Below, in pieces: positions 2,431-35,538 of a stretch of 64,000 nucleotides of DNA. Position numbers and translations under genes: made by a program. How positions within the stretch are numbered: the stretch's first letter is position 1; each line of letters begins with the position of its first letter. Below the pieces are notes generated by a model. It saw only the letters and a program-made list of their open reading frames with translations. It did not search any database and was not told the origin of the DNA. This stretch comes from Bdellovibrionaceae bacterium UBA2316 (GTDB lineage: Bacteria > Bdellovibrionota > Bdellovibrionia > Bdellovibrionales > Bdellovibrionaceae): contig DDVI01000089.1 of NCBI GenBank assembly GCA_002345205.1, positions 11,008 through 75,007 on the forward strand. Reading direction: 5' to 3'.

Positions 2431-2433
2431 TAT

Positions 2434-3309: not shown

Positions 3310-3318
3310 GTTTAGACT

Positions 3319-14048: not shown

Positions 14049-14606
14049 GTGCAAACAGAAAATACTCTTGAGAAACCCATTACCGAGATAGAAGACTATA
14101 AAATTCTAGTCTATGACTTACATTCGTCTGCGCTCGCAACTGATGCTATGGGCCTTCTTTCTCAGGATGCGGTTTTCAATTACGACGATGCCGCAAATAT
14201 TTGGGGTGAACTAAACCCTGCATTATTTGACTTGCAACAAAAAATTATTTCTCTTAGTCAGGTCTACCAAAGTAAATTTGTACAAGATTCAGAACGCGAA
14301 ATAGAAAGTTTCGATGGATGGTATGTGAGTACCGCAACCTCTAATACGCATTTGCAAAAGCATCATCATCGCGGTCATTCGGACATAAATTGCCTTTATT
14401 ATGTTTACGCAGATATGCAGGATCCTGGTCCAATTGAAATTTATTTAGAAACTGACGAAAATAGCGCACCTCATGAGGAACATTATCTATTTAAACCTTT
14501 TCCAGGAGCCCTTATTTTTTTCCCTGGAGCTAGTCCTCACCGCGTTAGACCGTATGAACGCCTTCGTTTAACAGTGGCCACCAATATCAAATTGAAAAGC
14601 AAATAA
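14049..14606 (+). CDS. 2OG-Fe(II) oxygenase-like protein (PF13759/TIGR02466-like)
   Basis: The motif layout is HHHRGHSDINCLYYVYA ... GALIFFPGASPHRVRPY ... RLTVATNIK. This matches the H-x-H ... FP..H.V.P ... R.s.s.N pattern I recall for that family. It is a paralogue of 16090..16671. Confidence 0.55.
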   Translation: MQTENTLEKPITEIEDYKILVYDLHSSALATDAMGLLSQDAVFNYDDAANIWGELNPALFDLQQKIISLSQVYQSKFVQDSEREIESFDGWYVSTATSNTHLQKHHHRGHSDINCLYYVYADMQDPGPIEIYLETDENSAPHEEHYLFKPFPGALIFFPGASPHRVRPYERLRLTVATNIKLKSK

Positions 14607-14654
14607 TCCCTTAAAATTGCGGTTGAGTTTTTTAAAATAGCGGACGAATATAAA

Positions 14655-15395
14655 GTGATGACGGGAAAAAAAACAGTTTCAACTTTTATATTAGCTTTCC
14701 TTACTGCGAGTCTGGTTTTAGCCCAAACGAAACCAACGCCGCCCAAACCGGTACCGGCTCCTAAGGCACCTGCGCCTCCGCAGGCCGAAGTTAGCCCATT
14801 TGAAAAAAGAACGTTCGCAGAAGGCGAGATAGCTGAAATCAGCTCTATCGCTGGTGGCGGAAATTTAAGAGCTATCGGAATTGCCACTAAATCTATACAA
14901 ATGACCGTTTCCAAACCCAAAGCGGGGACTCGCTGCCAGCTGCAGATTTTTCAAACTCCAGAATCTGTTTTAATGGTTAAGTCTGCCAGCGCCAGTAATG
15001 AGCGATGTATAATGGATGGTGAAATTTCGGTTCCTGCCGATGTCAGCTATAAGGCATCTGCAGAAGAAGGTAATTTAAACATCACAGGCGTAAAATTAGT
15101 ATCTGAAGTCAGCATGGGTTCGGGAGATATTCTTTTAGATGGAATTGGCTCTAATGCAGAAGTTACTATCAGAAGAGGCTCGGTCGTATTAGATCGCGCA
15201 ACTGTCGGCGCTAAAATTACGGTTCAGGATAGCGCTAACGTACGATGCAATTTTTCGTCAACTCCGGCGACAGGGATATTAATGATTGAATCCCGCGGCG
15301 GATCGGTCGATATAAATCTTCCTAAGGCAACTGCTTCCAGTTTTGGCATTAATTTTAAAATAGAATCTGGCGATTTTTCCATTAAGCGATTTTAA
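14655..15395 (+). CDS. Secreted beta-rich protein (DUF4097/putative-adhesin-like), Pro-rich linker after the signal peptide
   Basis: It has a signal peptide (…SLVLAQT), then KPTPPKPVPAPKAPAPPQ, then repetitive G-x-(I/V)-x-(I/V) strands. Its C-terminal ...SGDFSIKRF resembles the ...NGEFKIKRN tail of 26840..27544. Confidence 0.6.
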   Translation: MMTGKKTVSTFILAFLTASLVLAQTKPTPPKPVPAPKAPAPPQAEVSPFEKRTFAEGEIAEISSIAGGGNLRAIGIATKSIQMTVSKPKAGTRCQLQIFQTPESVLMVKSASASNERCIMDGEISVPADVSYKASAEEGNLNITGVKLVSEVSMGSGDILLDGIGSNAEVTIRRGSVVLDRATVGAKITVQDSANVRCNFSSTPATGILMIESRGGSVDINLPKATASSFGINFKIESGDFSIKRF

Positions 15396-15400
15396 AAATT

Positions 15401-16090
15401 ATGATTTCAAATCGGGAATACTTTAGAAATATTAACCAAAGTATCCATCCTCTAGCAGAGGAAGTAACGATTTGTCGTGGCGGCGTCGAAGAGAATCTGT
15501 TTGATGCCCGTACGGCGCCAACCGAGCTTCTGGCTCGCTTCACAGAAGAACTAGGACTAAATTTTGGAATTGGCGTAGATATTAGCCGTCTACAGCAATT
15601 CAGTTTTCAAGCCGCGGACGGGATTAGTTATTTTGAAGATAAGCTCATGGCCGTCTATTCAGGTGGCACATCGGAATATTTAAATTATTCATTTAATATA
15701 AAGCAGCCTCACGATGACTACTGCGTGAATTTTTATTTAGATAGCAGAAAATCGGCCGCTAAGTTTTATGACCTAGATATCGATTCTTATGCAAAGCCTA
15801 CTCTTCCAGAAGGGTCCACATTTGCATCTCCGTTTGGACATGGGATCGCTCCAGACAGTAATCGGCAGGATGTTTACTTTTGCCATCCCGATTTACACTA
15901 TGTTGCGCGATTTTTTAGTTTACCGGCACCAACGGTTCCAGAATTAGCTACTATAGATCAAAACCTGTCCGTTATTAAAGTTTTTGGTCTTTCTTATGAT
16001 GCTAATTCTTTAAAACCATTAAAACTAAAAAGATATTTCTATCCACAAGATCCAAATATGACCTATATTTTGTTCGATGAGGTTCAATAA
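15401..16090 (+). CDS. Hypothetical protein (229 aa)
   Basis: A long ORF in the operon frame, 6 nt after the previous gene and sharing TAATG with the next. No family recognised. Confidence 0.6.
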   Translation: MISNREYFRNINQSIHPLAEEVTICRGGVEENLFDARTAPTELLARFTEELGLNFGIGVDISRLQQFSFQAADGISYFEDKLMAVYSGGTSEYLNYSFNIKQPHDDYCVNFYLDSRKSAAKFYDLDIDSYAKPTLPEGSTFASPFGHGIAPDSNRQDVYFCHPDLHYVARFFSLPAPTVPELATIDQNLSVIKVFGLSYDANSLKPLKLKRYFYPQDPNMTYILFDEVQ

Positions 16091-16671
16091 TGAGTGCCAC
16101 TTATTTTGAAGGATTTCCCGTAGTAGCCTATGACCTAGCGGCGTATGAAAGTATGCTAAAACCCTTTTGCGACTTTATGTTATCTGCCGAAGGCGAGAAA
16201 TTTACATTAGGAGATGATTACGAAACAGATCGAGTAAATATTTGGGATCTAGATATCGATGCCGTTCGTTTAATGTCGGCAGTCTTTGATACTCATTGTT
16301 TGCAGTACTTAGAAGAAATGCATCCTCAGTATAAAGGTAAAAAATTAAATTATGTTCTAGAAAAAGATGCTTGGCTGACTACCCCGGAAACAAAACAACA
16401 TGTACGTATTCATAATCATTTACCACCTTTTATTCGGGCCGAAGACGCCGGTGAGCTGGTCACTGTTTTTTACGTCCATCTGGATGAAACCATAAATATG
16501 AATAATGGCCCACTTGAACTTTTCCATTCACCCGATTTGAAACCGGCTCATATTTGGTTGCCAAAAACTTATAATTTGATTCTGATGACACCTCAGGTGT
16601 GGCATCGAGCGCGTCCTTTTACGGGTAAACGATACTCTTTAGCGACCGATATCAAAGTGCGAACAGCGTAA
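16090..16671 (+). CDS. 2OG-Fe(II) oxygenase-like protein (PF13759/TIGR02466-like)
   Basis: The motifs are IHNHLPP...VTVFYVHL ... LILMTPQVWHRARPF ... RYSLATDIK. The arrangement is the same as in 14049..14606. Confidence 0.6.
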   Translation: MSATYFEGFPVVAYDLAAYESMLKPFCDFMLSAEGEKFTLGDDYETDRVNIWDLDIDAVRLMSAVFDTHCLQYLEEMHPQYKGKKLNYVLEKDAWLTTPETKQHVRIHNHLPPFIRAEDAGELVTVFYVHLDETINMNNGPLELFHSPDLKPAHIWLPKTYNLILMTPQVWHRARPFTGKRYSLATDIKVRTA

Positions 16672-16683
16672 AGTAGGATTTAG

Positions 16684-17721
16684 ATGTTTCACGTTTTTGA
16701 AAGTATCTATTTTGATTTTCACCACGGGATTTCCGATCACGGTTATGATCGGATCGTCATCGGCAAATCAGAATTATTTTCCGCACAAGACTACGCATCG
16801 TTTACAGAATTTGTCGAAAAAGAACTTAATGGCAAACCTTCTGATTTTTGGCGATTTTTGCGTTCATATCCCCGAAAATCCTCGCGCCTGATAGTGTATT
16901 TAGAGGCGAATCAATTATTAGAATTGCAGCTAGAACTTTGGAAAAATATTTTGCCACATGCTTCAAATGATACTTTAGTTCAACTCCACAAAACCTACCT
17001 TGAAGACTGTAAATTTCGAAGGTTCCTATCGACAAATGTGGAAAGTGAGAAATCAAAGCAAGGCTACTCGATGCTCAAGCCTTTCGATACGGTCACTCTG
17101 GAACAAGTTATTCAGAAAATTTCACCTATACCTTTCCTTAAAGAGCTAAAAAAAGAAGAACTCAGTTTCGAGTACCAACTGAGCGAATTTTTACTGAATC
17201 CAAATTCACCGATAAAGGCTTGCGTTTTAGACAAGGTGCGGCATTTTACGTGGTCTAATTGGCTGGCCGAGCTTGAAATATTAAAAGGCGATATTCTGAA
17301 CGGAATTATAGACGTAAATCGCCTTCTTCCTGATGATTCGCATATTGATGTCAGCGACCCGACGCTGCTATTTCACCAAATTATTGGCCACCCTTATCTG
17401 AGCTGGGTCACGGATCTTGAATTTTACTCTAGCAATTATGATTTTATCGAGCGAAGCTACGATAAAAATATTTTTAAAAAGATCTACGAGCGATTTTATA
17501 GCTTATGGCAAGTAAATGGCGAGGATATGAGCGAGCTTATTGATCTGATATACTCCCATCAATATGAAAAATTACTTTATCGCGACATTCAAAGAAGCTT
17601 TGGTTGCGTGTATTCGGCCGGGCGATTTCGCAATCGTATGAATCAAATTTTAATTTCCTGGATTTACTCTATGAAACGAGCCAATAACACGGCCGCGTTA
17701 AAGTCGTTAAGTCTTAGTTAA
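16684..17721 (+). CDS. Hypothetical protein, 'MFHxF' family (paralogue of 30735..31832)
   Basis: It shares blocks with the 30735 product: MFHVF/MFHFF, RIVIGKS/RVIGSR, ELSFEYQLSEFLLNPNSP/TLSFEYHLANHFYNPNGP, QRSFGCVYS/QRFGSIFA and ISWIYSMKRANNT/ISYILEKVRANKT. Confidence 0.65.
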   Translation: MFHVFESIYFDFHHGISDHGYDRIVIGKSELFSAQDYASFTEFVEKELNGKPSDFWRFLRSYPRKSSRLIVYLEANQLLELQLELWKNILPHASNDTLVQLHKTYLEDCKFRRFLSTNVESEKSKQGYSMLKPFDTVTLEQVIQKISPIPFLKELKKEELSFEYQLSEFLLNPNSPIKACVLDKVRHFTWSNWLAELEILKGDILNGIIDVNRLLPDDSHIDVSDPTLLFHQIIGHPYLSWVTDLEFYSSNYDFIERSYDKNIFKKIYERFYSLWQVNGEDMSELIDLIYSHQYEKLLYRDIQRSFGCVYSAGRFRNRMNQILISWIYSMKRANNTAALKSLSLS

Positions 17722-17817
17722 TTTATTTAATCCTTTATATTTATGACCCAAAAAACAGATGTATTTGATTTCCAAATAGGTTAGCGTTTTCTTTGAATTG
17801 TGCCCAGGGGAGGGTTC

Positions 17818-18888
17818 TTGAGTAAGGATCTAATTGTATATTTGAAAACTACAGATACTTGCCAACTAAATTGCGATCATTGTTTTACTAATGGTCAAAA
17901 TGGAAAAAAAGGTTGGTTCGACGTACCCAAGACAATTGATTTCTTCCAAAGGCTGAAGAAATACCAGCCTCACTATGATCAAGGCCACTTTGCCTTGCAT
18001 GGTGGTGAACCCATGCTATGTCCGCCCGAACTTTTATTTGAAGCTTGGCATGGAATCAAAGATTTATGGCCAAAACTATGGTGGACAGTTCAGACTAACC
18101 TTACCTATTCTTTGACTGATGATAAATTAAAAGTCTTCGATCAAATTTGCAATAAAGTGATAGGCACGTCATGGGATTACGGAATTCGCTGGAAAAGTCC
18201 TAAACAAAAAGAACTTTGGGCAAAAAACGTAAAACAACTGACTAGCACTGGCCATAAAGTCACCGTGATGGTCAGTCTAAATAAAAAACTAATCCAAGAA
18301 AAAGAGCCAATCGATATTATTAACGAGTGTGCCGAGCTTGGCATTCAGTACATAAACTTCGAACGTATTACAAATGCGGGCAATGCGTCTCTTAATTCAA
18401 GCGTCTTTCCGTCGAATAAAGAACTCGATGCTTGGATAATGAAAATGTGGCATCAAACGCAAGAGCACCGAACGTGGGAATATATTTCCAATATGTTCTT
18501 AGACTCCATTTTTACATCTTTAGTATATAATACACATTCTGGCTGCCGCTCGCGACAATGCGAACAAAAAATTCTGACTATTAATGCAGACGGAACCGTT
18601 GGTGGATGCCCTAACGAAGCGACACATAAACATTATGGTCGTATCGATGATACCATAGAAAAACTAATGTATAGTCCGTGTCGCCTATGCAATATTCAAA
18701 GCGAAGCGGTACGCAACGATGTATGCAATACCTGCCCGGTCTACGATATTTGTAATGGCGATTGCCACCAGTTAGCTTGGCAAGATGATGTATGCGCGGC
18801 TCCTCGCAGCCTGATGGTCCATTTGCGCGAGCGCAATGACCAGACCCTTTACAAAGAAATTATGAATGGATTCATGGGGCAAGAATGA
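17818..18888 (+). CDS. Radical SAM enzyme with complete SPASM domain
   Basis: It has a CQLNCDHC (Cx3Cx2C) cluster, an LHGGEPML SAM motif, and a full SPASM signature: CEQKILTINADGTVGGC (Cx10Gx4C) plus CNTCPVYDICNGDC (Cx2Cx5Cx3C). I chose the start at TTG 17818, which follows a GGGGAGGG Shine-Dalgarno; the track has GTG 17800. Confidence 0.9.
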   Translation: MSKDLIVYLKTTDTCQLNCDHCFTNGQNGKKGWFDVPKTIDFFQRLKKYQPHYDQGHFALHGGEPMLCPPELLFEAWHGIKDLWPKLWWTVQTNLTYSLTDDKLKVFDQICNKVIGTSWDYGIRWKSPKQKELWAKNVKQLTSTGHKVTVMVSLNKKLIQEKEPIDIINECAELGIQYINFERITNAGNASLNSSVFPSNKELDAWIMKMWHQTQEHRTWEYISNMFLDSIFTSLVYNTHSGCRSRQCEQKILTINADGTVGGCPNEATHKHYGRIDDTIEKLMYSPCRLCNIQSEAVRNDVCNTCPVYDICNGDCHQLAWQDDVCAAPRSLMVHLRERNDQTLYKEIMNGFMGQE

Positions 18889-19898
18889 ATCTACCGGTAG
18901 AAAACTTATACGCAAAATTTGGAGACCCTTATCGCGTCGTCGAGTTTCGCGCATTTTCGTTTAATACGTGCCGGGCCGGTTGCAAGAATTGCTTCTACCA
19001 AAAGACAAATAACGAATTTTATGATTTCCAAAAATGTTATGACCTGGCCGTTGATTTTAAAAAGAATCATTACACCTTAGAAACGTTTTACATTCTTCCT
19101 ACTGACATTTTTGAAAATGATTTTAATTACCGCGTGTTTTACGACGAAAAGTTTAAAAGTGTCGCCAAGCTATTTAACTATATTGGTGTGGCTTCAACAT
19201 TAAGGCATGGTTTCGATGAAAAAATATTTGATTATTTCTTTCATGAATTTCCCGGCCTAAAGATTGAACTTCACGTTAATCTACTAGAAGAAGAAATTGG
19301 AAAACCAGACTACGTACAGTTTTTAAGCCAAACGCTAACGCAGATTAAAACTCAGTACGGCGACCAAATCCTGATAAATCTGGCATTAAACATTGGTTCC
19401 CAGTGGCAGACCGGTCAGTTAAATCAAGTAAAACACTTAGTAAGTGAGTACTCTCAGGATAAAATATTAGAGCTAAATTTTACGTTTATGTTTAACGATA
19501 AGATCAGCTACGCGGAAAAAGCACGCCTAATTGAGAGCAGCTATCCCGTTTTAGAATATTTTGGCAGGGAATTTCAAAAGACCGAGCGACGATTTAATAG
19601 TCGCACTTTGTTGCGTAAGCCATCGATCACATTTAAAAATGATCGCATTTACTTATCGCCAATTATTCCATTTGATGAGTACATCTTTATGGACGAGCCA
19701 GATTTTCAGCTGTCAGAAACTAATTTTGATTCGTTTTTGACGACGTATCAAAAAATTGAAGCTAAAAACATTCCCCAACGTCAGGAATGCCAAAGCTGTG
19801 AACATTTCGAGTATTGTTATGGAAAAGGATTTTTTTCAATTATGAATCATTATAATTTGCCTTGCCTAAAGGTGTGTGGAGGAAAGAATGGCAACTAA
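18885..19898 (+). CDS. Radical SAM-like enzyme, degenerate SPASM/twitch C-terminus ('PTD' subtype)
   Basis: It has a CRAGCKNC (Cx3Cx2C) cluster. The GGE motif is replaced by ILPTDIF. Only a partial C-terminal motif remains (CQSCEHFEYCYGKG), and there is no Cx9-15Gx4C. An ATGA overlap joins it to the upstream gene. Confidence 0.8.
   Translation: MNLPVENLYAKFGDPYRVVEFRAFSFNTCRAGCKNCFYQKTNNEFYDFQKCYDLAVDFKKNHYTLETFYILPTDIFENDFNYRVFYDEKFKSVAKLFNYIGVASTLRHGFDEKIFDYFFHEFPGLKIELHVNLLEEEIGKPDYVQFLSQTLTQIKTQYGDQILINLALNIGSQWQTGQLNQVKHLVSEYSQDKILELNFTFMFNDKISYAEKARLIESSYPVLEYFGREFQKTERRFNSRTLLRKPSITFKNDRIYLSPIIPFDEYIFMDEPDFQLSETNFDSFLTTYQKIEAKNIPQRQECQSCEHFEYCYGKGFFSIMNHYNLPCLKVCGGKNGN
19878..19883 (+). 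promoter_or_regulatory. Shine-Dalgarno (GGAGGA) for the 202-aa candidate substrate ORF
   Basis: GGAGGA lies 4 nt upstream of ATG 19888, inside the 3' end of the preceding rSAM gene. Confidence 0.6.
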
Positions 19899-20496
19899 TC
19901 AAGGTGACGAAGCACAAGCCGCCGATCGCGCCATATTTTTTAATAAGTTTATGAATATCGTGAGACAACCGATACTAGGGGTTGGGGCGGGAAATCCCAA
20001 TGTGGTTTGGTATAGCGGGAATCATCCGTATTCAGGGTATGCATCGGTAGCAAGTCAGCTTGGGCCTAGAACCATAAATCCTGCGCAAACAAACCCCGCA
20101 ACGTTCGTACGAGGCACTAGAATAACATCGGCGCAAATGATGAACGTATTAAATACGTTGCATGGTTTTGCAAATCAGATTACTCGGTTTAGAAATACTA
20201 CTTGGCGATATCGTCGAACTCCAGGGCCAGACAACATTGGCGGCCCCCAGTTTACTGCGCTTCGAAACACCTACCTTTCTACCATTCCAATGCCCTCGAC
20301 CGCAGCATTTCAGGTAGCTCAAGAAATTACGTTTGTTGGCCCAGTGCCGCCGACTGCGCCAAACAGCGCCATCGATGCGTTTATGAATGCGCTTAGAACC
20401 AGTTTAACAAATTTTATTGCCGCTAATCCGGTTCAATTAACAGCCTGCCATGCCTCTTGCCACTCTTCGTGTCATGGGGCCCGAGGAAGAAGGTAG
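19888..20496 (+). CDS. Candidate substrate/precursor protein of the rSAM cluster; 202 aa, Lys-poor, Arg/Ala/Pro/Thr/Asn-rich, C-terminal CHASCHSSCHGARGRR
   Basis: It is an ORF with a strong Shine-Dalgarno, embedded between rSAM genes with overlaps on both sides. It has one Lys in 202 aa against about 16 Arg. Its only Cys residues are the three in the C-terminal CHxS-CHxS-CH motif. The track start GTG 19876 adds 4 aa. Confidence 0.65.
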   Translation: MATNQGDEAQAADRAIFFNKFMNIVRQPILGVGAGNPNVVWYSGNHPYSGYASVASQLGPRTINPAQTNPATFVRGTRITSAQMMNVLNTLHGFANQITRFRNTTWRYRRTPGPDNIGGPQFTALRNTYLSTIPMPSTAAFQVAQEITFVGPVPPTAPNSAIDAFMNALRTSLTNFIAANPVQLTACHASCHSSCHGARGRR

Positions 20497-20498
20497 AT

Positions 20499-21614
20499 TT
20501 GAGTCATTTCAGTAGTGATTTTAACGTTGTTTATCTGCGCGTGGTTCAGGGATGTAATCTGAACTGCACGCACTGCTTTACGTTGGGCAATAAAGATAAG
20601 TACGAGCTAGCAAGCCTAGCGCAAATCACTGAATTCCTTACCAGCATTCGCAAGAATGTAAATCCAAAGGGTGCCGTATTTTATATCCATGGTGGAGAGC
20701 CCTTCTTAGCGCCTAAAGAACATCTTAGAGCCGTTAACGAAATCATTAGATCAACGTTTCCAGATATTAAAATAAATATAATCCCACAAACTAACTTAAT
20801 GTTTAAGGTCGACCAGGAATTTGTAGACTTCATCAACGAAGAATACGCAGGCCACATCGGCGTTTCTTGGGATCATGGTATCCGTTTTCAAACAACGACT
20901 CGGGCACTGGATGAAGACTTATTCTTAAAAAACTTCCGCTACCTAGTTGAAAAGGATATCGAAATGGCCGTCGCCATTACGGTACAGAAGCACCTTTTAA
21001 CCGAAGATCCTATTTCCATTGTTCAAAGACTCGAAGGTGCAAAATCAATTGATTTTGAATTCCTTACGATGTTCGACAAGAAAACGATGGATCTAAAAGT
21101 TAACAATACAGAATGGTCAAAGTTCTACCATCAGATCGTCACTTATTATTCAAATAATAAAACAACTTGGTCACTGCCTCAGGTGGATTTGCTAACAAAG
21201 AGTTACATCGAAAATAAGATTTACCAGTGCAAATGTAACTGCTGTCAGCACAGAACATTTACAATGAATTGCAACGGGACCGTGGGCCTGTGTCCAGATG
21301 AAACTTACGTAGCCCCTATCTCCACAGTAAAAGAAATGGCTAACGATTGGACAAGTTTTAGCACCAAAGCGGAAACTTTATATTTAAGACAACTGGGGCA
21401 AGAAATAAATTCGCTATGTACCCAGTGCGAATTCTTTGATGTATGCGGCGGAAATTGTGAACCGACGTTGTTTTCAGAGAACGACGAAGAATGTCCACTG
21501 TCCAAGCAATCCATCGCATACCAGTTTAATAACATTCAAATATTTCAAAATAAATTACAAGAAGCTAAAGAAAATTTAGTCGAGCTTAGAGAAAGAGGTC
21601 CTTCATGCCATTAA
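20499..21614 (+). CDS. Radical SAM enzyme with complete SPASM domain
   Basis: It has CNLNCTHC, IHGGEPFL, CQHRTFTMNCNGTVGLC (Cx10Gx4C) and CTQCEFFDVCGGNC. The likely start is TTG 20499, 5 nt after GGAAGAAGG; the track has TTG 20457, which overlaps the previous ORF. Confidence 0.9.
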   Translation: MSHFSSDFNVVYLRVVQGCNLNCTHCFTLGNKDKYELASLAQITEFLTSIRKNVNPKGAVFYIHGGEPFLAPKEHLRAVNEIIRSTFPDIKINIIPQTNLMFKVDQEFVDFINEEYAGHIGVSWDHGIRFQTTTRALDEDLFLKNFRYLVEKDIEMAVAITVQKHLLTEDPISIVQRLEGAKSIDFEFLTMFDKKTMDLKVNNTEWSKFYHQIVTYYSNNKTTWSLPQVDLLTKSYIENKIYQCKCNCCQHRTFTMNCNGTVGLCPDETYVAPISTVKEMANDWTSFSTKAETLYLRQLGQEINSLCTQCEFFDVCGGNCEPTLFSENDEECPLSKQSIAYQFNNIQIFQNKLQEAKENLVELRERGPSCH

Positions 21615-24511: not shown

Positions 24512-25509
24512 TTATTAAACCCACCGAGCTTTGCAATTTCAAATGCACTTTCTGCAGTTCAACTCATTTGGTAGACGATAAACGCACCCAACTGAGCCAT
24601 GAACTCATATTTTCCTTTTTAAAACGCTTTCCTAATACATCTACCATCATTGTAAATGGCGGCGACCCGTTGATGATGAAACCAGACTATTACTGGGAAA
24701 TAATTCGATATTTGGAAGAGCGAAATATGAATACGACTCTTTCCTTTACGACGAATCTTTGGGCATTTTATAAAAATCCAGAGCCTTGGGTAGAGCTTTT
24801 CAAACACCCGCTGGTGGGAATTAACACATCATTCAACTATGGCCAGACACGAAGAATTACCAAAGACCGCGTTTATACAGAGGAAGATTTTTGGAAGGTG
24901 TCTGATTTATTTTTGGAAAAAATCGGTTACCGCCCCTCTTTTATCTCGGTCATTACCGAAGAAAATTTTTCCACTGCGATCGATAATGTTTATTTAGCAA
25001 AAAAAATGAACGTAGAATGTAAACTTAATTATGCTCTAGCCTCTGGTGACCAAGGCTCCTCATTTTTGATGGGTAAAATCTATGAGGTTTACTTGCAAAT
25101 CATTCGGCTTGGACTGACCGAGTGGGAATACAACTCTAAGCAAATTATCAGAAAAAAAAATGCGATATCAACATCGTGCCCACTGAACCGTGCTTGTGAT
25201 GAAACAATCCGATGTCTTCAGCCAGAAGGCGATTATTACAGCTGCGGCGCTTTTGGGGACGATAAACAGTATCCGATCAGTTTCCAAGAGGAAGTCATTC
25301 AAGGGAAAAAGTTTCTTCCATTAAAAGATCAAGCCCCCCTAGCTTATTTAAAAGAAGACTGCCTGACGTGCCCTCTTTTTGAAATTTGCAATGGCTGTAA
25401 GAAAAATATCTCTGATATAAAAAAGTCTAATCGTGTTCAAGAACACTGTTCGGCGATGCAAAAAAATATGATCGAACTCGATGGGCTCGTTAATTATGGA
25501 ATCCATTAG
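24502..25509 (+). CDS. Radical SAM enzyme with SPASM domain
   Basis: It has CNFKCTFC, VNGGDPLM, CDETIRCLQPEGDYYSC (Cx10Gx4C) and CLTCPLFEICNGC (a Cx2Cx5Cx2C variant). The TTG start follows a GAGG. Confidence 0.9.
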   Translation: MELIIKPTELCNFKCTFCSSTHLVDDKRTQLSHELIFSFLKRFPNTSTIIVNGGDPLMMKPDYYWEIIRYLEERNMNTTLSFTTNLWAFYKNPEPWVELFKHPLVGINTSFNYGQTRRITKDRVYTEEDFWKVSDLFLEKIGYRPSFISVITEENFSTAIDNVYLAKKMNVECKLNYALASGDQGSSFLMGKIYEVYLQIIRLGLTEWEYNSKQIIRKKNAISTSCPLNRACDETIRCLQPEGDYYSCGAFGDDKQYPISFQEEVIQGKKFLPLKDQAPLAYLKEDCLTCPLFEICNGCKKNISDIKKSNRVQEHCSAMQKNMIELDGLVNYGIH

Positions 25510-26431
25510 TCTATCGATAAATCCGTCTTACTATTGCAACTTTCGTTGTGATTTTTGCTATCTCAGTGAAGCGCAGTTATCGTCTTCGCAAAGAATTACT
25601 CCGGATGAGTTATACTCACGTTTATTAGAAATTTCGATGCATAGAAAAATCTCGCATATTGATTTATATGGCGGAGAAATTGGAATTTTGCCCAGCAGTT
25701 ATCTGGACCAGATAAAAAAAATAATGCGTTATTTTTACCAAGGCCCAATTAGCGTCATTACCAATTTAAAAGTCATCAACCCTTTTTTTGCGTCCGCGGA
25801 CGTTGATTTATCAGTAAGCTGGGACTACCTTGCGCGCGAAAGCCATGCCGAAGTATATGAAAACATGAAGAAATTAGGTCGGCCTTTCCATGTATTGATG
25901 CTGGCCAGTCGCAAGCTGATCGATATAGACGATTCGTCTCTTAACGTATTGTGGGAAAAGCTAAACGGATTGCCTAATTTGCAGTCGTTAGAAATTAAAC
26001 CGTACTCTAAAAATCCTCATCATCCTCAAGAGGTTTCTTTTATTCAATTTGAAAACTGGGTTAAAAAATGGGTTTCGCAAGTCAATCAGTTTCCATTTGA
26101 ATTTATCAATTTGAAAAAAATAGAAAAGAGCTTATCCGGAAACGTCTCTGCGTGGTCGGATGATCATGTTTATATCACTCCCAGCGGAAAGCTAGCCGTG
26201 CTTGAGTTTGATGCCAATCATAACGAATTCTTTATGCCATTAAATAGTATGGACGAATACTTTGCTTGGACGGATTTAGAAAAACGGAAAATTAACTCGA
26301 ATCAGTATTGCTCTAAATGCGAGTACTTAGGCAGCTGCCTCAGTGAACACTTGCAGGAAGTAGTTACCTTATCTAATTCTTGCAATGGTTTTAAAAATCT
26401 ACTGGATTGGTACAAAAATGAAAGAGCATAA
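25481..26431 (+). CDS. Radical SAM enzyme, degenerate SPASM C-terminus
   Basis: It has CNFRCDFC and LYGGEIGI. The C-terminal CSKCEYLGSCLSEH has His in place of the fourth Cys, and there is no Cx9-15Gx4C element. Confidence 0.8.
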   Translation: MGSLIMESISLSINPSYYCNFRCDFCYLSEAQLSSSQRITPDELYSRLLEISMHRKISHIDLYGGEIGILPSSYLDQIKKIMRYFYQGPISVITNLKVINPFFASADVDLSVSWDYLARESHAEVYENMKKLGRPFHVLMLASRKLIDIDDSSLNVLWEKLNGLPNLQSLEIKPYSKNPHHPQEVSFIQFENWVKKWVSQVNQFPFEFINLKKIEKSLSGNVSAWSDDHVYITPSGKLAVLEFDANHNEFFMPLNSMDEYFAWTDLEKRKINSNQYCSKCEYLGSCLSEHLQEVVTLSNSCNGFKNLLDWYKNERA

Positions 26432-26843
26432 AGTTAAACAATTAGTTTTTAACCGACTTGGCACGTTCGATGATAACTTGAATTCACTAACCTATATTTT
26501 GGCAGAAGATCCAAAAGATATAATCCAGCATGCAGTTGATTACTTTCAGAAGCCTTGCTCTGAATTAATTTATCCTGCGAAATCTTACGCCGTCGCCATT
26601 ATCTACGCACATTTGCTGGAAAAAAACTTCGATGACGAATTCTCCAGTTCACTGGATGATGTCGATCTTTTTTGCGGGAACGACAAGTTTTTTGTTCCCT
26701 ATTCTTCGGACAAGAAGACTTATGATACAATTCTAGAGCGAATTGGATACTCAAATGCATTTGTTTTAAATACTGAATTACCGCAGATTTCAAAAACTGT
26801 ACGGTACTTTCAAAGCGAGTTTCAACTCGAGGTCCTTACCTAG
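26385..26843 (+). CDS. Hypothetical protein (about 141-152 aa), last gene of the rSAM operon
   Basis: The ORF overlaps the preceding rSAM gene. An alternative ATG lies at 26418 (MKEHKVKQ...). No family recognised. Confidence 0.55.
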   Translation: MVLKIYWIGTKMKEHKVKQLVFNRLGTFDDNLNSLTYILAEDPKDIIQHAVDYFQKPCSELIYPAKSYAVAIIYAHLLEKNFDDEFSSSLDDVDLFCGNDKFFVPYSSDKKTYDTILERIGYSNAFVLNTELPQISKTVRYFQSEFQLEVLT

Positions 26844-27544
26844 TTACGTTTAATTTTAAATTCACCATTATTTACTTTAGTAGAAAACGTAAAGCCGCTT
26901 GGAGTTCGGTAGTCACCTAGATAGGTTGCCTGATTATAGTTTCCCTCTAATGTAATTCCACGAGGGACAATAAACGTTACGTTACCTTTTCTTGAAACTA
27001 GATTGTTATCTCCGCGCCCTGACAAAGACGTGTAATCGATAACAACATCGCCATCGTCAATTTCGACTTGCATCGAAGGGGTCGCGCCTTTAAAATCAAT
27101 TTTTGTTTTTTTACCAATAATATCTAATGAACGTCCGTTACCAAAGACTTCGATGCTACCTTCATCCGTTTCTAAAATCGAATCATGAAAATCCCCAGAA
27201 GCCTTTAATTTCCCGCGAGTAATTACTACTTCTGTATCAACGCCAGACGGTAGAGAAATATTAAACTCAAATGGACAATTTAAAGAGTTCTGCGTCTGTG
27301 TAAAATCAATGGTTAGCTCGCGACTGTTCATTTTCGAATTGTATACACAATTGCTAGCCGCTTTTGTTTTATCTACCCTTACTGTCGTTTTACTTCCAGA
27401 CAGAGTATTAAAAGTAATATCGGCCTGGGTTCCAGTAATTTTTATCTTTGATAAATCATTATACTCTTCATCCGCAAAACTCATAAAGGACAAAAATAAC
27501 GTTAAAGAAAAAACAGCTGTATTTATATTTCGAGACAATTTCAT
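26840..27544 (-). CDS. Secreted beta-rich protein (DUF4097/putative-adhesin-like), paralogue of 14655..15395
   Basis: It has a signal peptide (…FMSFADE) and repetitive short beta-strand pattern. Its C-terminal NNGEFKIKRN matches the tail of 14655..15395. Its stop codon overlaps the stop of the convergent 26385..26843 ORF. Confidence 0.65.
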   Translation of the reverse strand: MKLSRNINTAVFSLTLFLSFMSFADEEYNDLSKIKITGTQADITFNTLSGSKTTVRVDKTKAASNCVYNSKMNSRELTIDFTQTQNSLNCPFEFNISLPSGVDTEVVITRGKLKASGDFHDSILETDEGSIEVFGNGRSLDIIGKKTKIDFKGATPSMQVEIDDGDVVIDYTSLSGRGDNNLVSRKGNVTFIVPRGITLEGNYNQATYLGDYRTPSGFTFSTKVNNGEFKIKRN

Positions 27545-27568
27545 AGTATAAACCTATCAGAGCCGAAG

Positions 27569-27982
27569 TTATTCGTAAATATCAATTCTAAATTCTTTTT
27601 CGACGTTAAAATCGGTTAGCTTATGCGAAAATGGTGGCTTTTTTCGGGGGTGATACACAATAGCCTTCATTCTCACTCGCCAATGTTCTTCTTTAATCAA
27701 AGAACTATTTAGAATTTTTTGTAATAAATCAAAAGAGGAAATTTGGTACTCTTCCAGTAAATACAGTAAATTGTTATTTATAGACCTGAACTCAAACCAA
27801 AGTGGTAAATAGTAACAGTTTTCAAAATAGAAAAACAAGAACAGTTCCGTGTCTTTTTGGTGACGTCGAAAGTTTTCGCAAAAAATTTCCAAATTTCCCT
27901 TATCATCGACGTCGATAATATTAGGAGTCGTGAATTCGTCCTTTTTATATCGAATAATTTCGTTAAGAAATAAGTCCGACAT
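27569..27982 (-). CDS. Hypothetical protein (137 aa)
   Basis: The ORF overlaps the upstream gene by 20 nt on the same strand. No family recognised. Confidence 0.5.
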   Translation of the reverse strand: MSDLFLNEIIRYKKDEFTTPNIIDVDDKGNLEIFCENFRRHQKDTELFLFFYFENCYYLPLWFEFRSINNNLLYLLEEYQISSFDLLQKILNSSLIKEEHWRVRMKAIVYHPRKKPPFSHKLTDFNVEKEFRIDIYE

Positions 27983-28730
27983 TGCTGACTCCTATTGGTT
28001 TAGCGTATTGAATCGGCAAATCATTTTTATATATAACCGATGCAAAAATATGACTTTGCGGATAAAAATTATTAAAGTTCTCATAGATAGACTCTTGATT
28101 CACATCAAGCCGCCCTAATCCACCAACATCAAAATTCAAATGCGCAACAACCTCGGCACGGAAGAATAGCTCACCTAAAGATTCGGGACTAAAAGTTTCT
28201 TTGATATAGGAACTGGCATAGTCCCAGGGTACATTTAACTGCTGATAAAATTTCGTATTTTGATTGTCGTAGGAAATTTTAACGGTTTCAGTACCAAATC
28301 TAATTAAACTACCCATCATATAGTAAGTAGTGTTCTCTTGAAGAGATTCGACTCGGTTTTGTGAATCAATAACCGCTAACCTAAAAGCGTCAGGTCTTTC
28401 GTACCAACTTTTGGCTTTAATTTTTAAAAGAATCTTTAACTCATCTTCTGGCCGCTGTTCATTTCTACTATCTTTACCATATGCTGAAAAAAAGAGATCA
28501 TCTTGGGCCGCAAACCATTCTTTTTTTTTCCATTTTTTTCCCTTTAAACTGAGATGCATGACTTCTATAAAATGAAGCCACTTCATATATTTCTGCTCGA
28601 TCAATGCGTCGGCCCAAGACGAGGACATCCTATACAGTCCGGGAAATTTATCGGCACTGGAAATTATAATTTTGAATACATCTTTATCTGATAAATAAGT
28701 AAGGTGCGATATTGGTACAGTGTACATCAA
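27963..28730 (-). CDS. Hypothetical protein (255 aa)
   Basis: A long ORF, divergent from the B12-rSAM gene. No family recognised. Confidence 0.55.
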   Translation of the reverse strand: MMYTVPISHLTYLSDKDVFKIIISSADKFPGLYRMSSSWADALIEQKYMKWLHFIEVMHLSLKGKKWKKKEWFAAQDDLFFSAYGKDSRNEQRPEDELKILLKIKAKSWYERPDAFRLAVIDSQNRVESLQENTTYYMMGSLIRFGTETVKISYDNQNTKFYQQLNVPWDYASSYIKETFSPESLGELFFRAEVVAHLNFDVGGLGRLDVNQESIYENFNNFYPQSHIFASVIYKNDLPIQYAKPIGVSNVGLIS

Positions 28731-28857
28731 ATAAAAGATACTTTAGGGTACATTAGCAAGCAAGCGGCCAGTCTAAAAATGGGATCAAAGTGTCAAAATA
28801 TTAGTTTGAAATCAAAGGCGATTGTGTTTACCCTATATAGATGGTGAGGATTTAAAA

Positions 28858-30735
28858 ATGAAGCAATCAATTTACATAGTTAACCCCATCATGACGTATC
28901 AAGATTTTCCTTTGCCCTATTTGTATTTGATTTTTAAATCTTATCACAAAGAATTTGGCAAACATCCCGATGCTTGGTCTTGGCCTCTGCCTGTAAATGG
29001 TGTCGAGGGACTTACCTTTGATGATATATTAGGAAATGTACTTGTTGAATCTCCCAAAGTGGTAGGATTTAGCAGCTATGTTTGGAATTACAAATTAAAT
29101 CTTGAACTGGGTAAGGCTATTAAAGAACTACTTCCTGATTGCATCTTGGTATACGGTGGGCCCGAAGTTCCTTATGACCAGCATCCAAATTGGCTAAAAG
29201 AAAATTATTTTGTCGACTTGATTGCCGATTCAAAAGGTACAGGCGAAGAGTTTATGATGACTCTTCTAGACCAGTTAGCAGAGGGCAGCTTTAATCCAGC
29301 AGAAATCCCATATTGCATTACACCTTCTGCCGACCGCACGACGGCAACAAAATCTGTTCCTACAACAAAACGCACAGATTTAAAATGGCCCCGATCCATG
29401 TTCTATGGAAATGAAACCGAAGTGCAGCTTCTTAAACATATCGCACAATCTAAAGACGCGCGCCTAACTACCCTTTGGGAAACCACGCGCGGGTGCCCTC
29501 ATGCGTGTGCATATTGTGATTGGGGCGGCAGTACTGGCGTAAAAGTTTTGAAGAAAAGCGAAGAGACTGTGTATGAAGAACTCAAATACATGGAAAGCTT
29601 AAATATTGAATACATTGATGTTTGCGATGCTAATTTCGGAATCTTTAAAGAACGCGATGTTAATATTATTCAATACATTATTGATCGAGCGAAACTGGGC
29701 TGGGATGTAGAAATTGGTTTAAATGGCAAAACCAAGAATGATATTACAACCGTTCAAAAAATTGATTTCATGACATTAGAATCGAAGATCGCAGTGAAGA
29801 GTGATTATCATTATTCGGTTAATTCTTCTGATTCCGTCGTATCCAAAGCGGTAAATCGCTGGTCTTATCCTACTCAGATGCACATAGATTTTGTTAAAAA
29901 GGTGAAAAGCCTGGGATACAAAACACGAATAGAATACATTTTAGGTCTTCCGGAAACTACCCTCGACATTTTCTATAATGAGTATAATGACATTGCCTAC
30001 GCCGATGCCTGGCTAAGCGAACGTTACGTATGGTCTTTATTAGCCAAATCTCCGGCGGCCAAACCTGCCTATCGTGAAAAATATAGAATTGAAACGGTTC
30101 CGGTCAGATACACCCACTATAATACCTTACGACAACTGACTAAATCAGAATATTATCTATTAGATGATCCAAAGTATCAGGGTTATTTTGATTTAGTGAT
30201 AGCGACCTCAACGTATACAAAGCAAGAATGGCTTCAGATGTACTTCATGGATAATTTTGTACGCGGCGTAGAATGCCTTTCCGTCACGACCTCACTACGT
30301 GAACATTGCGAAACATTGGGCGTTAGCGCCGGTCAATTCTTTAGATACTGCTGGGCCACTTTAGAAAAAATGAGAGCCTCGGGCAATGAAGGTCTCGCAG
30401 AGATTTTCTCAAGCATTGAGGATGCTCTTCAAGGTAAAATTACATTTGCGTACTATCAATACCAAGGACAAATTCTGGGTCTCCAAACTATTTCGTCTTT
30501 CTTCCTGACAAAATATGCTGACGAATTTGTTTCCATATTTCGTGAATTTCTTCCGCAAGACGCAGAAGTCGATCACCAAATTGGCAAGATGAAGTCTCGC
30601 CTAGAAACTTTAAAAAATAATGCAGATCCCGTTCGAAGGATTGTGGATGAGCATTCAAGTTATGTTTATGGATCACTATCGAAAAAAATAAATTCAACGT
30701 CTGCTCTGAAGGCTGTCGGCAACGGGATTGAATAG
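28858..30735 (+). CDS. B12-binding-domain radical SAM enzyme (class B-like)
   Basis: The N-terminal Rossmann-type cobalamin-binding region reads VVGFSSYVWNYKLNLELGKAIKELLPDCILVYGGPEVP. It is followed by TTRGCPHACAYCDWG (Cx3Cx2C). I chose the start at ATG 28858 after a GGTGAGGA Shine-Dalgarno; the track has TTG 28822. Confidence 0.85.
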   Translation: MKQSIYIVNPIMTYQDFPLPYLYLIFKSYHKEFGKHPDAWSWPLPVNGVEGLTFDDILGNVLVESPKVVGFSSYVWNYKLNLELGKAIKELLPDCILVYGGPEVPYDQHPNWLKENYFVDLIADSKGTGEEFMMTLLDQLAEGSFNPAEIPYCITPSADRTTATKSVPTTKRTDLKWPRSMFYGNETEVQLLKHIAQSKDARLTTLWETTRGCPHACAYCDWGGSTGVKVLKKSEETVYEELKYMESLNIEYIDVCDANFGIFKERDVNIIQYIIDRAKLGWDVEIGLNGKTKNDITTVQKIDFMTLESKIAVKSDYHYSVNSSDSVVSKAVNRWSYPTQMHIDFVKKVKSLGYKTRIEYILGLPETTLDIFYNEYNDIAYADAWLSERYVWSLLAKSPAAKPAYREKYRIETVPVRYTHYNTLRQLTKSEYYLLDDPKYQGYFDLVIATSTYTKQEWLQMYFMDNFVRGVECLSVTTSLREHCETLGVSAGQFFRYCWATLEKMRASGNEGLAEIFSSIEDALQGKITFAYYQYQGQILGLQTISSFFLTKYADEFVSIFREFLPQDAEVDHQIGKMKSRLETLKNNADPVRRIVDEHSSYVYGSLSKKINSTSALKAVGNGIE

Positions 30736-31832
30736 TGTTTCACTTTTTTAACAAAATCTATTTAGAAAATATAATTTACTATAACTCGGTTTACCCTTCT
30801 CGCGTTATTGGATCACGAACGATGCCTCACCCTTTGGCTCGATTTAATGAGGATATTTTCGGCCCTCTGCCTACTTTGGAAGAGTACTTAAATACAAATG
30901 CCGACGGTTCTATAGACAATCTGTGGAAAGATTTTTTTACCCAAAAAGATAGTAAAACGTTTCTAGTTTACGTCGATACACCCTTAGAACTAAAGCTTAA
31001 GATTATTTACTGGAAATCTATTTTTAAGAACCCCAATCCTGACATTTTATATTGGCTTCATAATTCATCTATTCTAGAGAGACGATTAAAATCCAGTGAT
31101 TTTCTTGAGAATAACGAACTTAAACGAGATATGATTTCTGAAAATCTAAACTTCACCAGTCGATCGGATTTTCAAAAGGTATTTGAAGAAAATAATCCTT
31201 CAGACTATCTATTAAGTATCGGGCGTGAAACTCTGTCTTTTGAGTACCATCTTGCCAACCATTTTTATAATCCGAATGGTCCAATGGAACAAATTTTCCA
31301 AGAAAAATTCAAAAAAATTGCTTGGAAAGCATGGTACAATGACGTTTCTGTGATGCGCGAAGATCTATTTAATTCTATTTACGATATTAAAAAAGTATTT
31401 CCAGATTTAGAGTTAGATGAAACTGATCCCCAAACTTTTGAAACCGCCATTTTATCATCGCCTAAAACTAGCTGGTTATTCGACGCTGACTTCAGTAGAG
31501 AAAATGTAGAACAAACACCGGCCCGCTATTCTAAAGAAGTGTTTACCGAAGCCCAGAAAAAAGCTTTAGATATGATCGCAAAAGAGCCTGAGTTCTACGA
31601 GAATTTTCAAAAAATGTTGATGTCTCCGATTGATAATCCGGTACGCAGGACAGAATTACTATTCGACGGAAATTACAGTCAGTTTTTAGACGATTGTGTT
31701 AAGCAAAGATTTGGTTCGATATTTGCGACGCATGCTCTCCCTGGTAAAGTCAGTACGAGCTTAATTTCCTATATTTTAGAAAAAGTACGAGCGAATAAAA
31801 CTAGCGATCTAGCCAGTTTTGAATTCAGATAA
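30735..31832 (+). CDS. Hypothetical protein, 'MFHxF' family (paralogue of 16684..17721)
   Basis: The GTG start overlaps the TAG stop of the B12-rSAM gene by 1 nt. The blocks shared with 16684..17721 are listed under that feature. Confidence 0.65.
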   Translation: MFHFFNKIYLENIIYYNSVYPSRVIGSRTMPHPLARFNEDIFGPLPTLEEYLNTNADGSIDNLWKDFFTQKDSKTFLVYVDTPLELKLKIIYWKSIFKNPNPDILYWLHNSSILERRLKSSDFLENNELKRDMISENLNFTSRSDFQKVFEENNPSDYLLSIGRETLSFEYHLANHFYNPNGPMEQIFQEKFKKIAWKAWYNDVSVMREDLFNSIYDIKKVFPDLELDETDPQTFETAILSSPKTSWLFDADFSRENVEQTPARYSKEVFTEAQKKALDMIAKEPEFYENFQKMLMSPIDNPVRRTELLFDGNYSQFLDDCVKQRFGSIFATHALPGKVSTSLISYILEKVRANKTSDLASFEFR

Positions 31833-34495: not shown

Positions 34496-34497
34496 AA

Positions 34498-35535: not shown

Positions 35536-35538
35536 GAT

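Follow-up and report, generated by a model that had tools for sequence, protein, structure and literature searches.

In the 64,000-nt window of contig DDVI01000089.1 (Bdellovibrionaceae bacterium UBA2316) that we analysed, the genes at 14049 to 31832 form a cassette encoding eight radical S-adenosylmethionine (radical-SAM) enzymes, several partner proteins and a small protein with a Cys- and His-rich C-terminus, referred to here as the CH-tail protein. We concluded that this cassette is an uncharacterised, widespread multi-radical-SAM protein-maturation system common to jumbo phages and predatory bacteria. On balance, we also think it probable that the system is dedicated to the post-translational maturation of the CH-tail protein, which would be used whole as a structural component. 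Coordinates are those of the window, open reading frames (ORFs) are named by their start coordinate, and L-numbers denote homologous loci compared by blastp synteny.

The presumed substrate is a 202-aa protein (19888..20496, + strand; phrog_35144), whose gene has a GGAGG Shine-Dalgarno sequence 5 nt before the ATG at 19888. A preliminary description of this DNA had pointed out the aberrant composition of the ORF, and we observed the same: Lys and Glu make up only 0.5% and 1% of the residues, Ala 12.4%, and the GC content of the gene is 0.48 compared to 0.39 for the locus. The protein had no match in Pfam or NCBIfam, including the NHLP/Nif11 leader and HxsA models. A single-sequence search of 5.8 billion proteins retrieved only four relatives, and the C-terminus was common to all of them. 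Searches with the tail motif identified 2 Bdellovibrionota metagenome-assembled genomes (MAGs) among GTDB species representatives, 11 metagenome loci and 20 IMG/VR loci; the GTDB scan used a pattern narrower than C-H-x-[SN]-C-H-x-[SN]-C-H. With a profile of 29 sequences the family grew to at least 243 clusters, and an exhaustive HMMER search gave 817 representative clusters at 50% identity (540 at E <= 1e-10). None of the members carries a name.

In an alignment of 145 distinct sequences, the C-terminal 16 positions follow the pattern C-H-x-S-C-H-x-[S/N]-C-H-x-S-R-G-R-R-COOH, in which the Cys, the His and the three Arg are invariant and the Ser nearly so. The strict form of the tail is kept in 251 of 263 family members. 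The body of these proteins is highly variable (15% mean column identity) and contains few Lys (median 0.8%) but 8% Arg, and Cys is confined to the tail in 100 of the 145. One could speculate that the Lys-poor body avoids side-reactions with a reactive tail. An AlphaFold2 (AF2) model computed from 26 sequences predicted a confident alpha/beta body (predicted local distance difference test, pLDDT, 79; predicted template-modelling score 0.75). Confidence was low over the tail, so this segment is likely flexible and accessible. Foldseek found no match for the model in the PDB, and in BFVD only uncharacterised phage proteins, one of them from phage Atu_ph07. The protein is thus predicted to be a conserved novel fold, 125-300 aa long across the family. 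The same domain also occurs in larger proteins: in five metagenomic sequences of 461 aa (P0013-P0017), it is located C-terminal to a Gly-rich domain of ~270 aa (precomputed Pfam PF21722), and 504-660 aa proteins of Myoviridae sp. ctijX18 hold the tail-protein fold in BFVD. In one 240-kb IMG/VR contig (L037, 9368-10051), the tail protein has a multiplied CH motif, like a multi-core precursor.

The locus is not a one-off. In the neighbourhood survey, the cassette proved to be widespread in Bdellovibrionota and jumbo phages and for the most part phage-borne, and its synteny is conserved in well over 100 independent loci, which excludes chance. The core set comprises the 17800-type enzyme, one or two copies of the tail protein, the 21605 protein, the 23459-, 24502- and 25481-type enzymes and the 26385 protein. 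The variable set consists of the 22366/18885-type enzymes (0-5 copies), the 20457 enzyme, the B12-type enzyme, the oxygenase-like proteins, 15401, 16684/30735 and 27569/27963. In almost all loci, the gene directly upstream of that for the tail protein encodes the 17800-type enzyme. The window has one of the fullest cassettes, near-equal in content to those of a Bdellovibrionota MAG (L006) and a 183-kb IMG/VR contig (L043).

Scanning IMG/VR with the 24502 enzyme as the anchor yielded at least 263 loci, of which the best 80 were used for the following counts. A tail-protein homologue was present within 10 kb of the 24502 enzyme in 60 of the 80. As these loci were found via the enzyme and not via the tail motif, this is an independent check of the association between enzyme and presumed substrate. 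Orthologues of the other components were frequent as well: 17800 in 68/80, 23459 in 66/80, 25481 in 65/80, 26385 in 58/80 and the B12-type enzyme in 31/80.

By tblastn, the 24502 and 23459 enzymes matched 15 cultured-phage records at 30-54% identity, the 24502 enzyme being 50-54% identical to genes of 15 jumbo-phage records and the 23459 enzyme 49-50% identical to genes of RSL2, RSF1 and FLC6. The phages with cassette enzymes include Ralstonia phages RSF1, RSL2, FLC4-x and RsoM3USA, Burkholderia phages FLC6, FLC8 and SURPRISE13, Pseudomonas phage pPa_SNUABM_DT01, Agrobacterium phage Atu_ph07 and Sinorhizobium phage Phosso. A CH-type C-terminus is present in RSF1 ORF071, and that of Atu_ph07 gp170 is FCHSSCHASCHNSRSRR. 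In RSF1, Atu_ph07 and L043, the cassette is located within modules of virion-structural genes. The RSF1 cassette (L038, 80329-81618) also has an HNH endonuclease gene and two dihydrofolate-reductase genes between its radical-SAM genes.

Two variant architectures were observed. In six IMG/VR loci (L042, L044, L046-L048 and L050), the tails end in YCHS[SN]CH[SG][SN]CHGS[IL] and are devoid of RGRR. These loci keep the 17800, 21605, 24502 and B12-type genes within 10 kb, and the 23459, 25481 and 26385 orthologues are missing. We counted this co-variation in favour of the pairing of enzymes and tail; judged from the pattern of gene loss, 23459, 25481 and 26385 may act on, or need, the Arg-rich end. 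In the second architecture (L009, L027-L029, L031, L033-L036, L086, L096, L105, L112 and L113), two tandem short tail proteins of 125-140 aa are accompanied by five tandem 22366-type paralogues, and a 21605 homologue is lacking. The idea that short-form phage loci lack the 17800 and 24502 enzymes was dropped, since L096, L105, L112 and L113 contain both.

Public annotations and genome papers describe the products as hypothetical, 'radical SAM', 'Fe-S oxidoreductase' or '2OG-Fe(II) oxygenase', and propose no role. We found no paper that describes the cassette; in genome papers on jumbo phages the genes are listed and nothing more, radical SAM goes unmentioned in the Iyer-Aravind jumbo-phage survey, and a literature text search for the tail motif returned no relevant match. 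One marine-virome paper noted that a T4-like genome contains 12 radical-SAM genes. The Ophion defence system is unrelated.

Evidence for a place of the tail protein in the virion came from Atu_ph07. Its virion proteome lists gp170 at 31.89 kDa with 8 unique peptides and 35% coverage (PMC6102473 Table S5). The computed mass of the Atu_ph07 tail-protein ORF, whose C-terminus is CHSSCHASCHNSRSRR, is 31.89 kDa, and since the mass is exact and the neighbours gp176 and gp177 agree too, we consider the gp170 numbering secure. The protein was detected in gel slices 1-9 and was most abundant in slice 1, at the top of the gel (PMC6102473 Table S5). In the same table, proteins of ~30 kDa peak in slices 7-8, and slice 1 holds species of 87-127 kDa (PMC6102473). 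The neighbours of gp170, namely the enzymes gp165, gp168 and gp171 and the protein gp169, are not among the virion proteins listed (PMC6102473 Table S5). In Atu_ph07, therefore, the tail protein is part of the virion, and after sodium dodecyl sulfate and heat it migrates at far more than the size of its monomer. This position is consistent with covalent cross-linking or with an oligomer of very high stability. No second virion proteome was found: the S13 and FLC6 papers contain no mass-spectrometry data, and a proteomics paper on RSL2/RSF1 lay outside the search.

A motif script placed Cx3Cx2C within the N-terminal 36 residues of seven ORFs and no others, 17800, 18885, 20457, 22366, 23459, 24502 and 25481, in agreement with the count of seven in the preliminary description. 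The motifs are CQLNCDHC at residue 21 in 17800, CRAGCKNC at 29 in 18885, CNLNCTHC at 33 in 20457, CKFKCRGC at 28 in 22366, CNLRCTFC at 29 in 23459, CNFKCTFC in 24502 and CNFRCDFC at 19 in 25481. With CPHACAYC at residue 225 of the B12-type ORF 28822, the cluster motif is present near the N-terminus of the core domain in all eight. All seven operon enzymes also carry a C-terminal CX2CX5C, the auxiliary-cluster motif of the SPASM/twitch type. It is extended to CX2CX5CX3C in 17800 (CNTCPVYDICNGDC at 309), 20457 (CTQCEFFDVCGGNC at 321) and 23459 (CLSCEWFERCSFRC at 302) and to CX2CX5CX2C in 24502. The other three, 18885 (CQSCEHFEYC at 302), 22366 (CESCTFLGSC at 318) and 25481 (CSKCEYLGSC at 277), have CX2CX5C only. 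Of the tandem SPASM paralogues claimed earlier, four thus have the complete SPASM-type motif and the remaining three the shorter form. SPASM/twitch-type auxiliary clusters are typical of peptide and protein modifiers.

Support from the hidden Markov model (HMM) searches was weak overall. Four of the eight enzymes reached the PF04055 gathering threshold of 29.5 bits (20457, 35.7; 24502, 43.0; 25481, 30.0; 28822, 33.6), and 17800 (24.2), 23459 (22.1) and 22366 (19.0) scored below it. ORF 18885 had no match in Pfam or NCBIfam, and its radical-SAM assignment comes from its motif and paralogy. The SPASM model TIGR04085 (cut-off 27) gave 27.1 bits for 17800 and 26.3 bits for 24502. ORF 20457 is 26% identical to 17800 by blastp. 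ORF 18885 is a distant paralogue of 22366, with orthologues of 41-56% identity in L002, L003, L006, L007, L011, L012 and L043. The 22366-type enzyme itself varies from 0 to 5 copies elsewhere, the five paralogues being those of the short-form phage loci.

None of these enzymes could be placed in a named family, which is in line with the earlier remark that no characterised family was recognisable. All NCBIfam equivalog scores were 5- to 30-fold under the cut-offs, the sub-threshold families being the anaerobic sulfatase-maturating enzymes (anSME), DynA, DarE, YhhB, FxsB, NirJ, AhbD, QhpD, HxsC and viperin. We therefore regard the enzymes as new clades of the radical-SAM superfamily. anSME was the top match for 17800, 20457 and 24502 at 40-66 bits (TIGR03942 cut-off 349): ORF 17800 scored 46 bits with anSME and 42 bits with DynA, and ORF 20457 scored 66 bits with anSME and 60.7 bits with the cyclophane synthase YhhB (cut-off 445), followed by weaker matches to FxsB, AmcB, GrrM and XyeB. 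Among the triceptide-synthase equivalogs this YhhB score was the best, the others being 20-40 bits, and no cut-off was reached. No cofactor-pathway enzyme was detected at equivalog level, the scores against their cut-offs being 33/515 bits for NirJ, 25.5/500 for AhbD and 25.6/453 for QhpD. PqqE and MftC were absent among the matches listed for the eight enzymes, and the pathway partner genes were not found. A known cofactor pathway of the heme d1/AhbD or PQQ type, which the preliminary description had named as a possible identity of the locus, is excluded by these low scores and missing partners.

The B12-binding-domain enzyme (28822..30735, +), which is class-B methyltransferase-like, gave 109 bits with NF033712 KedN5 (cut-off 700), 55 bits with TIGR03975 (cut-off 282) and a weak 22.8 bits with PF02310 (cut-off 32.1). 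The presence of such a gene near the operon had been noted before. It belongs to the same system, since L006 and many phage loci have its orthologue within the cassette.

The cassette resembles known pairs of a SPASM enzyme and its substrate, yet it falls within the criteria of no named family. In triceptide systems (XyeB, GrrM, FxsB with FXSXX-COOH, YhhB, HaaB and HtkB), as here, the gene for a SPASM enzyme stands beside a substrate with repeated aromatic-x-x units; these motifs are sometimes at the extreme C-terminus and His-x-x is accepted (PMC11499958), and three H-x-S units are present in the CH tail. The cassette differs from them in that scores here are ~7-fold under the cut-off, a folded protein of 125-300 aa would take the place of the short peptide as substrate, the single radical-SAM enzyme has seven or eight counterparts, an invariant Cys precedes each His, and the system is phage-borne and virion-associated. 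The anSME enzymes and QhpD, which forms thioether cross-links in QhpC, modify Cys/Ser of an intact protein, as proposed here. The tail unit C-H-x-S-R even has the same Cys-to-Arg spacing as the sulfatase motif C-x-P/A-x-R, although position +2 is not Pro/Ala. Unlike those systems, the locus has multiple paralogous enzymes and neither a sulfatase nor an amine dehydrogenase partner. The His-Xaa-Ser system (HxsA-D) shares the repeated His-x-Ser units and the presence of more than one radical-SAM enzyme. In contrast to it, the cassette gave no HxsA match, and ORF 24502 scored only 28.9 bits with HxsC against a cut-off of 267.9. The His-Xaa-Ser system is likewise functionally uncharacterised (TIGRFAMs).

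In proteusins of the polytheonamide type, too, a single ribosomal product with a long N-terminal region is hyper-modified by a set of radical-SAM, B12-radical-SAM C-methyltransferase-like and Fe/2-oxoglutarate (2OG) hydroxylase-like enzymes. This analogy, drawn in the preliminary description, fails on the precursor, which has no NHLP/Nif11 leader match; neither did we find a PoyD-type epimerase match, a dehydratase, an N-methyltransferase or a protease. Moreover, the proteusin pattern is reversed here, the core being invariant and the 'leader' variable.

We regarded the tail as the site of modification because it is invariant on a variable body, the enzymes are tightly linked to it and they are of the SPASM/twitch type. 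In the mechanism that we propose, 17800 and the core enzymes 23459, 24502 and 25481 would act on the C-terminal tail, and the lineage-specific extras 18885, 20457 and 22366 would add further modification. By analogy to the known synthases, the tail chemistry is probably radical cross-linking. Radical-SAM cyclophane synthases link the C2 of His to the C-beta of the third residue in HAA, HNR and HTK motifs (PMC11499958). Three-residue cyclophanes (His-to-C-beta) on the H-x-S units would be most plausible, together with or in place of Cys thioethers, or else Cys/Ser oxidation; the thioethers and an anSME-like oxidation of Cys/Ser in the tail are equally possible. The B12-type enzyme would add C-methylations and the two Fe/2OG-like proteins hydroxylations, with 21605, 16684/30735, 26385 and 15401 serving as putative chaperones or scaffolds. 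The product would be neither cleaved nor exported, jumbo phages would build the matured protein into the virion, and in this Bdellovibrionota genome the tail protein probably works with the adjacent pilin-like/S74 fibre proteins.

Several points weigh against this proposal. The virion evidence comes from a single proteome of a single phage, a smear across several slices is seen for many proteins in its table, and aggregation could also explain the position of gp170 in the gel. The RSF1 annotation marks some virion structural proteins, and ORF071 is not among them. The assignment of the tail protein as the putative substrate was made on purely genomic grounds. Oxygenases need O2, and radical-SAM enzymes are O2-sensitive. 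The bacterial tail protein has no signal peptide that would bring it to a surface fibre. Lastly, the middle C-H-x-S unit is missing or replaced in a few natural variants, which means that not all three units are essential.

A classical ribosomally synthesised, post-translationally modified peptide (RiPP) or peptide-derived cofactor is an unlikely alternative to maturation of the whole protein. In such a pathway the ~185-aa body would be a leader and the modified 16-residue tail would be released as a small molecule such as a metallophore or redox cofactor. Although a short invariant C-terminal motif on a variable body recalls PqqA and MftA, the body is a conserved, confidently predicted fold and not a known leader domain, and models for PQQ, mycofactocin, NirJ and AhbD are either unmatched or far below their cut-offs. 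The many tailoring enzymes, and the mixture of radical-SAM, B12-radical-SAM and Fe/2OG enzymes known from proteusins, would suit a RiPP, as would the multiplied, multi-core-like CH repeats of L037. However, the whole tail protein was recovered from Atu_ph07 virions at 35% coverage, and Pfam/NCBIfam scans detected no peptidase or exporter in the window or the conserved core, in agreement with the earlier statement that the locus has no protease or transporter gene. We therefore preferred protein maturation to an exported, leader-cleaved RiPP because the substrate would be a folded protein and virion component, protease and transporter are lacking, and some members are Gly-rich fusions. The phrase 'RiPP-like or protein-maturation system' with an embedded substrate is thus retained in its second half, with the 202-aa protein as candidate, and the exported RiPP fits less well.

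Improbable, too, is that the tail protein is not a substrate at all but binds metal or Fe-S through its tail and serves as a scaffold, an electron carrier or a metal-loaded spike tip, the enzymes having other targets such as DNA bases, lipid, glycan or further proteins of the virion. Cys/His repeats are classic metal ligands, here at the typical i/i+4 spacing, so that the tail could bind metal; phage spike tips bind Fe/Zn via His/Cys (P2 gpV, phi92 gp138 and PAAR), and a cluster donor would be of use to eight Fe-S enzymes. Metal binding alone is nevertheless insufficient to explain why the Ser at -12, -8 and -4, together with the terminal RGRR, is kept just as strictly as the Cys and His. The dihydrofolate-reductase genes inside the RSF1 cassette might hint at another substrate, but no alternative substrate gene and no nucleotide or sugar pathway is conserved with the core, and SPASM-type enzymes encoded beside small-protein genes are usually protein modifiers. 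A natural variant in L080 with His replaced by Phe also speaks against metal ligation, although the argument is weak, as the replacement is confined to a single lineage and the middle unit is lost altogether in other variants.

A conflict system between phage and host, serving phages as anti-defence and bacteria as defence, or decaying phage-derived cargo in the bacterium, is very improbable: the patchy spread over unrelated jumbo-phage lineages and predatory bacteria implies horizontal transfer and radical-SAM enzymes do occur in defence (viperins), but PADLOC gave only generic radical-SAM similarity (weak pVip matches and PDC-M51A) and no specific defence model, the tail protein is packaged in virions, none of the 20 ORFs is broken in the independent assembly L004, where identity is 98-100%, and orthologues of 40-75% identity are spread across many Bdellovibrionota contigs.

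Maturation of the CH-tail protein, our preferred explanation, would have wider implications. The system opens new enzyme space, as it is unnamed, has up to eight radical-SAM enzymes and includes two partner families with confident folds that are unmatched in the PDB. A modified tail would mean that the reach of radical-SAM maturation includes structural proteins of the virion in addition to small peptides and cofactors, and would account for the strings of 'radical SAM' genes listed uncommented in many giant-phage genomes. The sharing of the cassette between jumbo phages and obligate predators, beside fibre genes, suggests a common host- or prey-interaction machinery. A bolder version, possible though doubtful, is that radical-SAM enzymes hyper-modify and covalently cross-link, or metal-load, the (C-H-x-S)3-RGRR tail on a structural protein of both jumbo-phage virions and a Bdellovibrionota pilin/S74-fibre apparatus, as a shared, horizontally exchanged device to attach to or breach prey envelopes. 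No earlier case of radical-SAM post-translational chemistry on a structural protein of a virion would then precede it.

The 15 ORFs from 14049 to 26843 all lie on the + strand. The ORF listing and a junction script reproduced the described co-directional arrangement: overlaps of 1-47 nt occur at 10 of the 14 junctions, and the widest gap is 78 nt. A promoter/terminator scan gave more sites in shuffled sequence than in the real one and was uninformative on operon boundaries. The seven radical-SAM genes of the operon are the core SPASM enzyme A (17800..18888), the divergent 337-aa enzyme (18885..19898), enzyme B, a paralogue of A (20457..21614, whose start may be an ATG at ~20499), a 366-aa CX2CX5C-type enzyme (22366..23466), the core SPASM-like enzyme of 350 aa with phage orthologues (23459..24511), the core SPASM enzyme that is the most conserved component (24502..25509) and the 316-aa core enzyme of the CX2CX5C type (25481..26431).

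The PHROG search gave four families of unknown function, 36207, 35144 (the tail protein), 20767 and 20737. The 253-aa product of 21605 (21605..22366, +; phrog_20767, E 4e-63) is a near-universal partner; large Bdellovibrionota contigs hold many of the clusters of its family, which number at least 122, and in phages its gene comes after the tail-protein gene. Its AF2 model is confident (pLDDT 91.6) and had no fold match in the PDB (best Foldseek E 0.31). Since the family has no invariant catalytic-looking residues, we treated it as a chaperone or scaffold. The core accessory protein 26385 (26385..26843, +; 141-152 aa; phrog_20737, E 3e-30) has Q8, P53, K55, V59 and Y63 among its invariant residues, and no PDB relative. 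The 345-aa protein 16684 (16684..17721, +; phrog_36207, E 2.8e-16) and the 365-aa protein 30735 (30735..31832, +; phrog_36207, E 2.2e-11) are paralogues (E 5e-31). A 16684-type gene adjoins the tail-protein gene in L001, L002, L005-L007, L012, L043 and RSF1 (ORF072), and the 30735 orthologue is directly 3' of the tail-protein genes in L001, L005 and L006. Profile searches of PDB sequences with the 21605, 16684/30735 and 26385 families gave nothing meaningful. The 229-aa protein 15401 (15401..16090, +) had no match in Pfam, NCBIfam or PHROG; its homologues are in L005, L006 (56% identity) and the phage loci L018-L022 and L076-L083.

Two ORFs at the start of the operon had been called 2OG-Fe(II)-oxygenase-like. 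ORF 14049 (14049..14606, +; 185 aa) scored 22.6 bits with PF13759 (cut-off 27) and matched phrog_81, '2OG-Fe(II) oxygenase', at E 1.8e-11. ORF 16090 (16090..16671, +; 193 aa) had no HMM match of its own and was assigned by paralogy to ORF 14049 (blastp E 7e-6); its L006 homologue is 51% identical. The HxH/D...H...R columns (H105, H164 and R173) are kept in 12 homologues, including RSF1 ORF080/082. The two assignments thus appear coherent although weak, and we retain them tentatively: residue conservation and phrog_81 favour them, but the PF13759 score is sub-cut-off and 16090 has paralogy only.

Two secreted DUF4097 proteins are paralogues that flank the main operon on both sides. Both are lineage-specific additions: a 'toastrack' protein at 14655..15395 (+; PF13349, 28.3 bits) and a DUF4097-like protein at 26840..27544 (-; blastp to the former, E 1.8e-6), whose N-terminus is signal-peptide-like. 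The pair is not found in phage cassettes and was seen, weakly, in L003 only. Beside the latter are two conserved accessory genes (27569..28730, -; 137 aa and 255 aa), whose products had no family match in Pfam, NCBIfam or PHROG and whose orthologues are located inside the cassette in L012, L043, L053, L065 and L067.

The window is chromosomal, as seen from genes for FabH, an acyl-CoA ligase, SecA and sensor kinases. The 90%-identity cluster of the 21605 protein includes MBL7557226.1 from a Bdellovibrionaceae/Pseudobdellovibrionaceae MAG, and its orthologues at 40-75% identity lie on many large bacterial contigs, including those of Pseudobdellovibrio and Bacteriovoracaceae. Downstream, 33440..37108 (+) holds three tail-fibre-like genes and a gene for a 200-aa protein that matches no family (35539-36141). 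All three fibre-like genes encode the PF13884 Peptidase_S74 C-terminal chaperone domain, two have the PF07963 pilin-type N_methyl N-terminus, and they match tail-fibre PHROGs. Homologues of this region flank the cassette in L001, L005, L006, L007 (GC 0.66) and L016, with 49-57% identity for the 200-aa protein. Cassette and fibre genes thus adjoin in six bacterial-type loci, the window included, and as homologues flank the cassette in five other loci, the fibre genes are part of the conserved bacterial neighbourhood. The view of the locus as an accessory island between housekeeping flanks is therefore unsupported: the GC profile of the window shows no anomaly over the locus, and the downstream flank is this conserved fibre-gene neighbour.

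In the near-identical assembly L004 (99.9% identity), in which all 20 locus ORFs are present, 1,228 extra bases (2312-3539) were observed relative to the window junction 13426/13427, just upstream of the cassette. Compared with L004, the upstream histidine kinase is reduced in the window from 480 aa to a 142-aa ORF, and a minus-strand membrane-protein gene (13378-13935) is altered at its 3' end. The difference at 13426/13427 is a strain-level deletion or an assembly difference.

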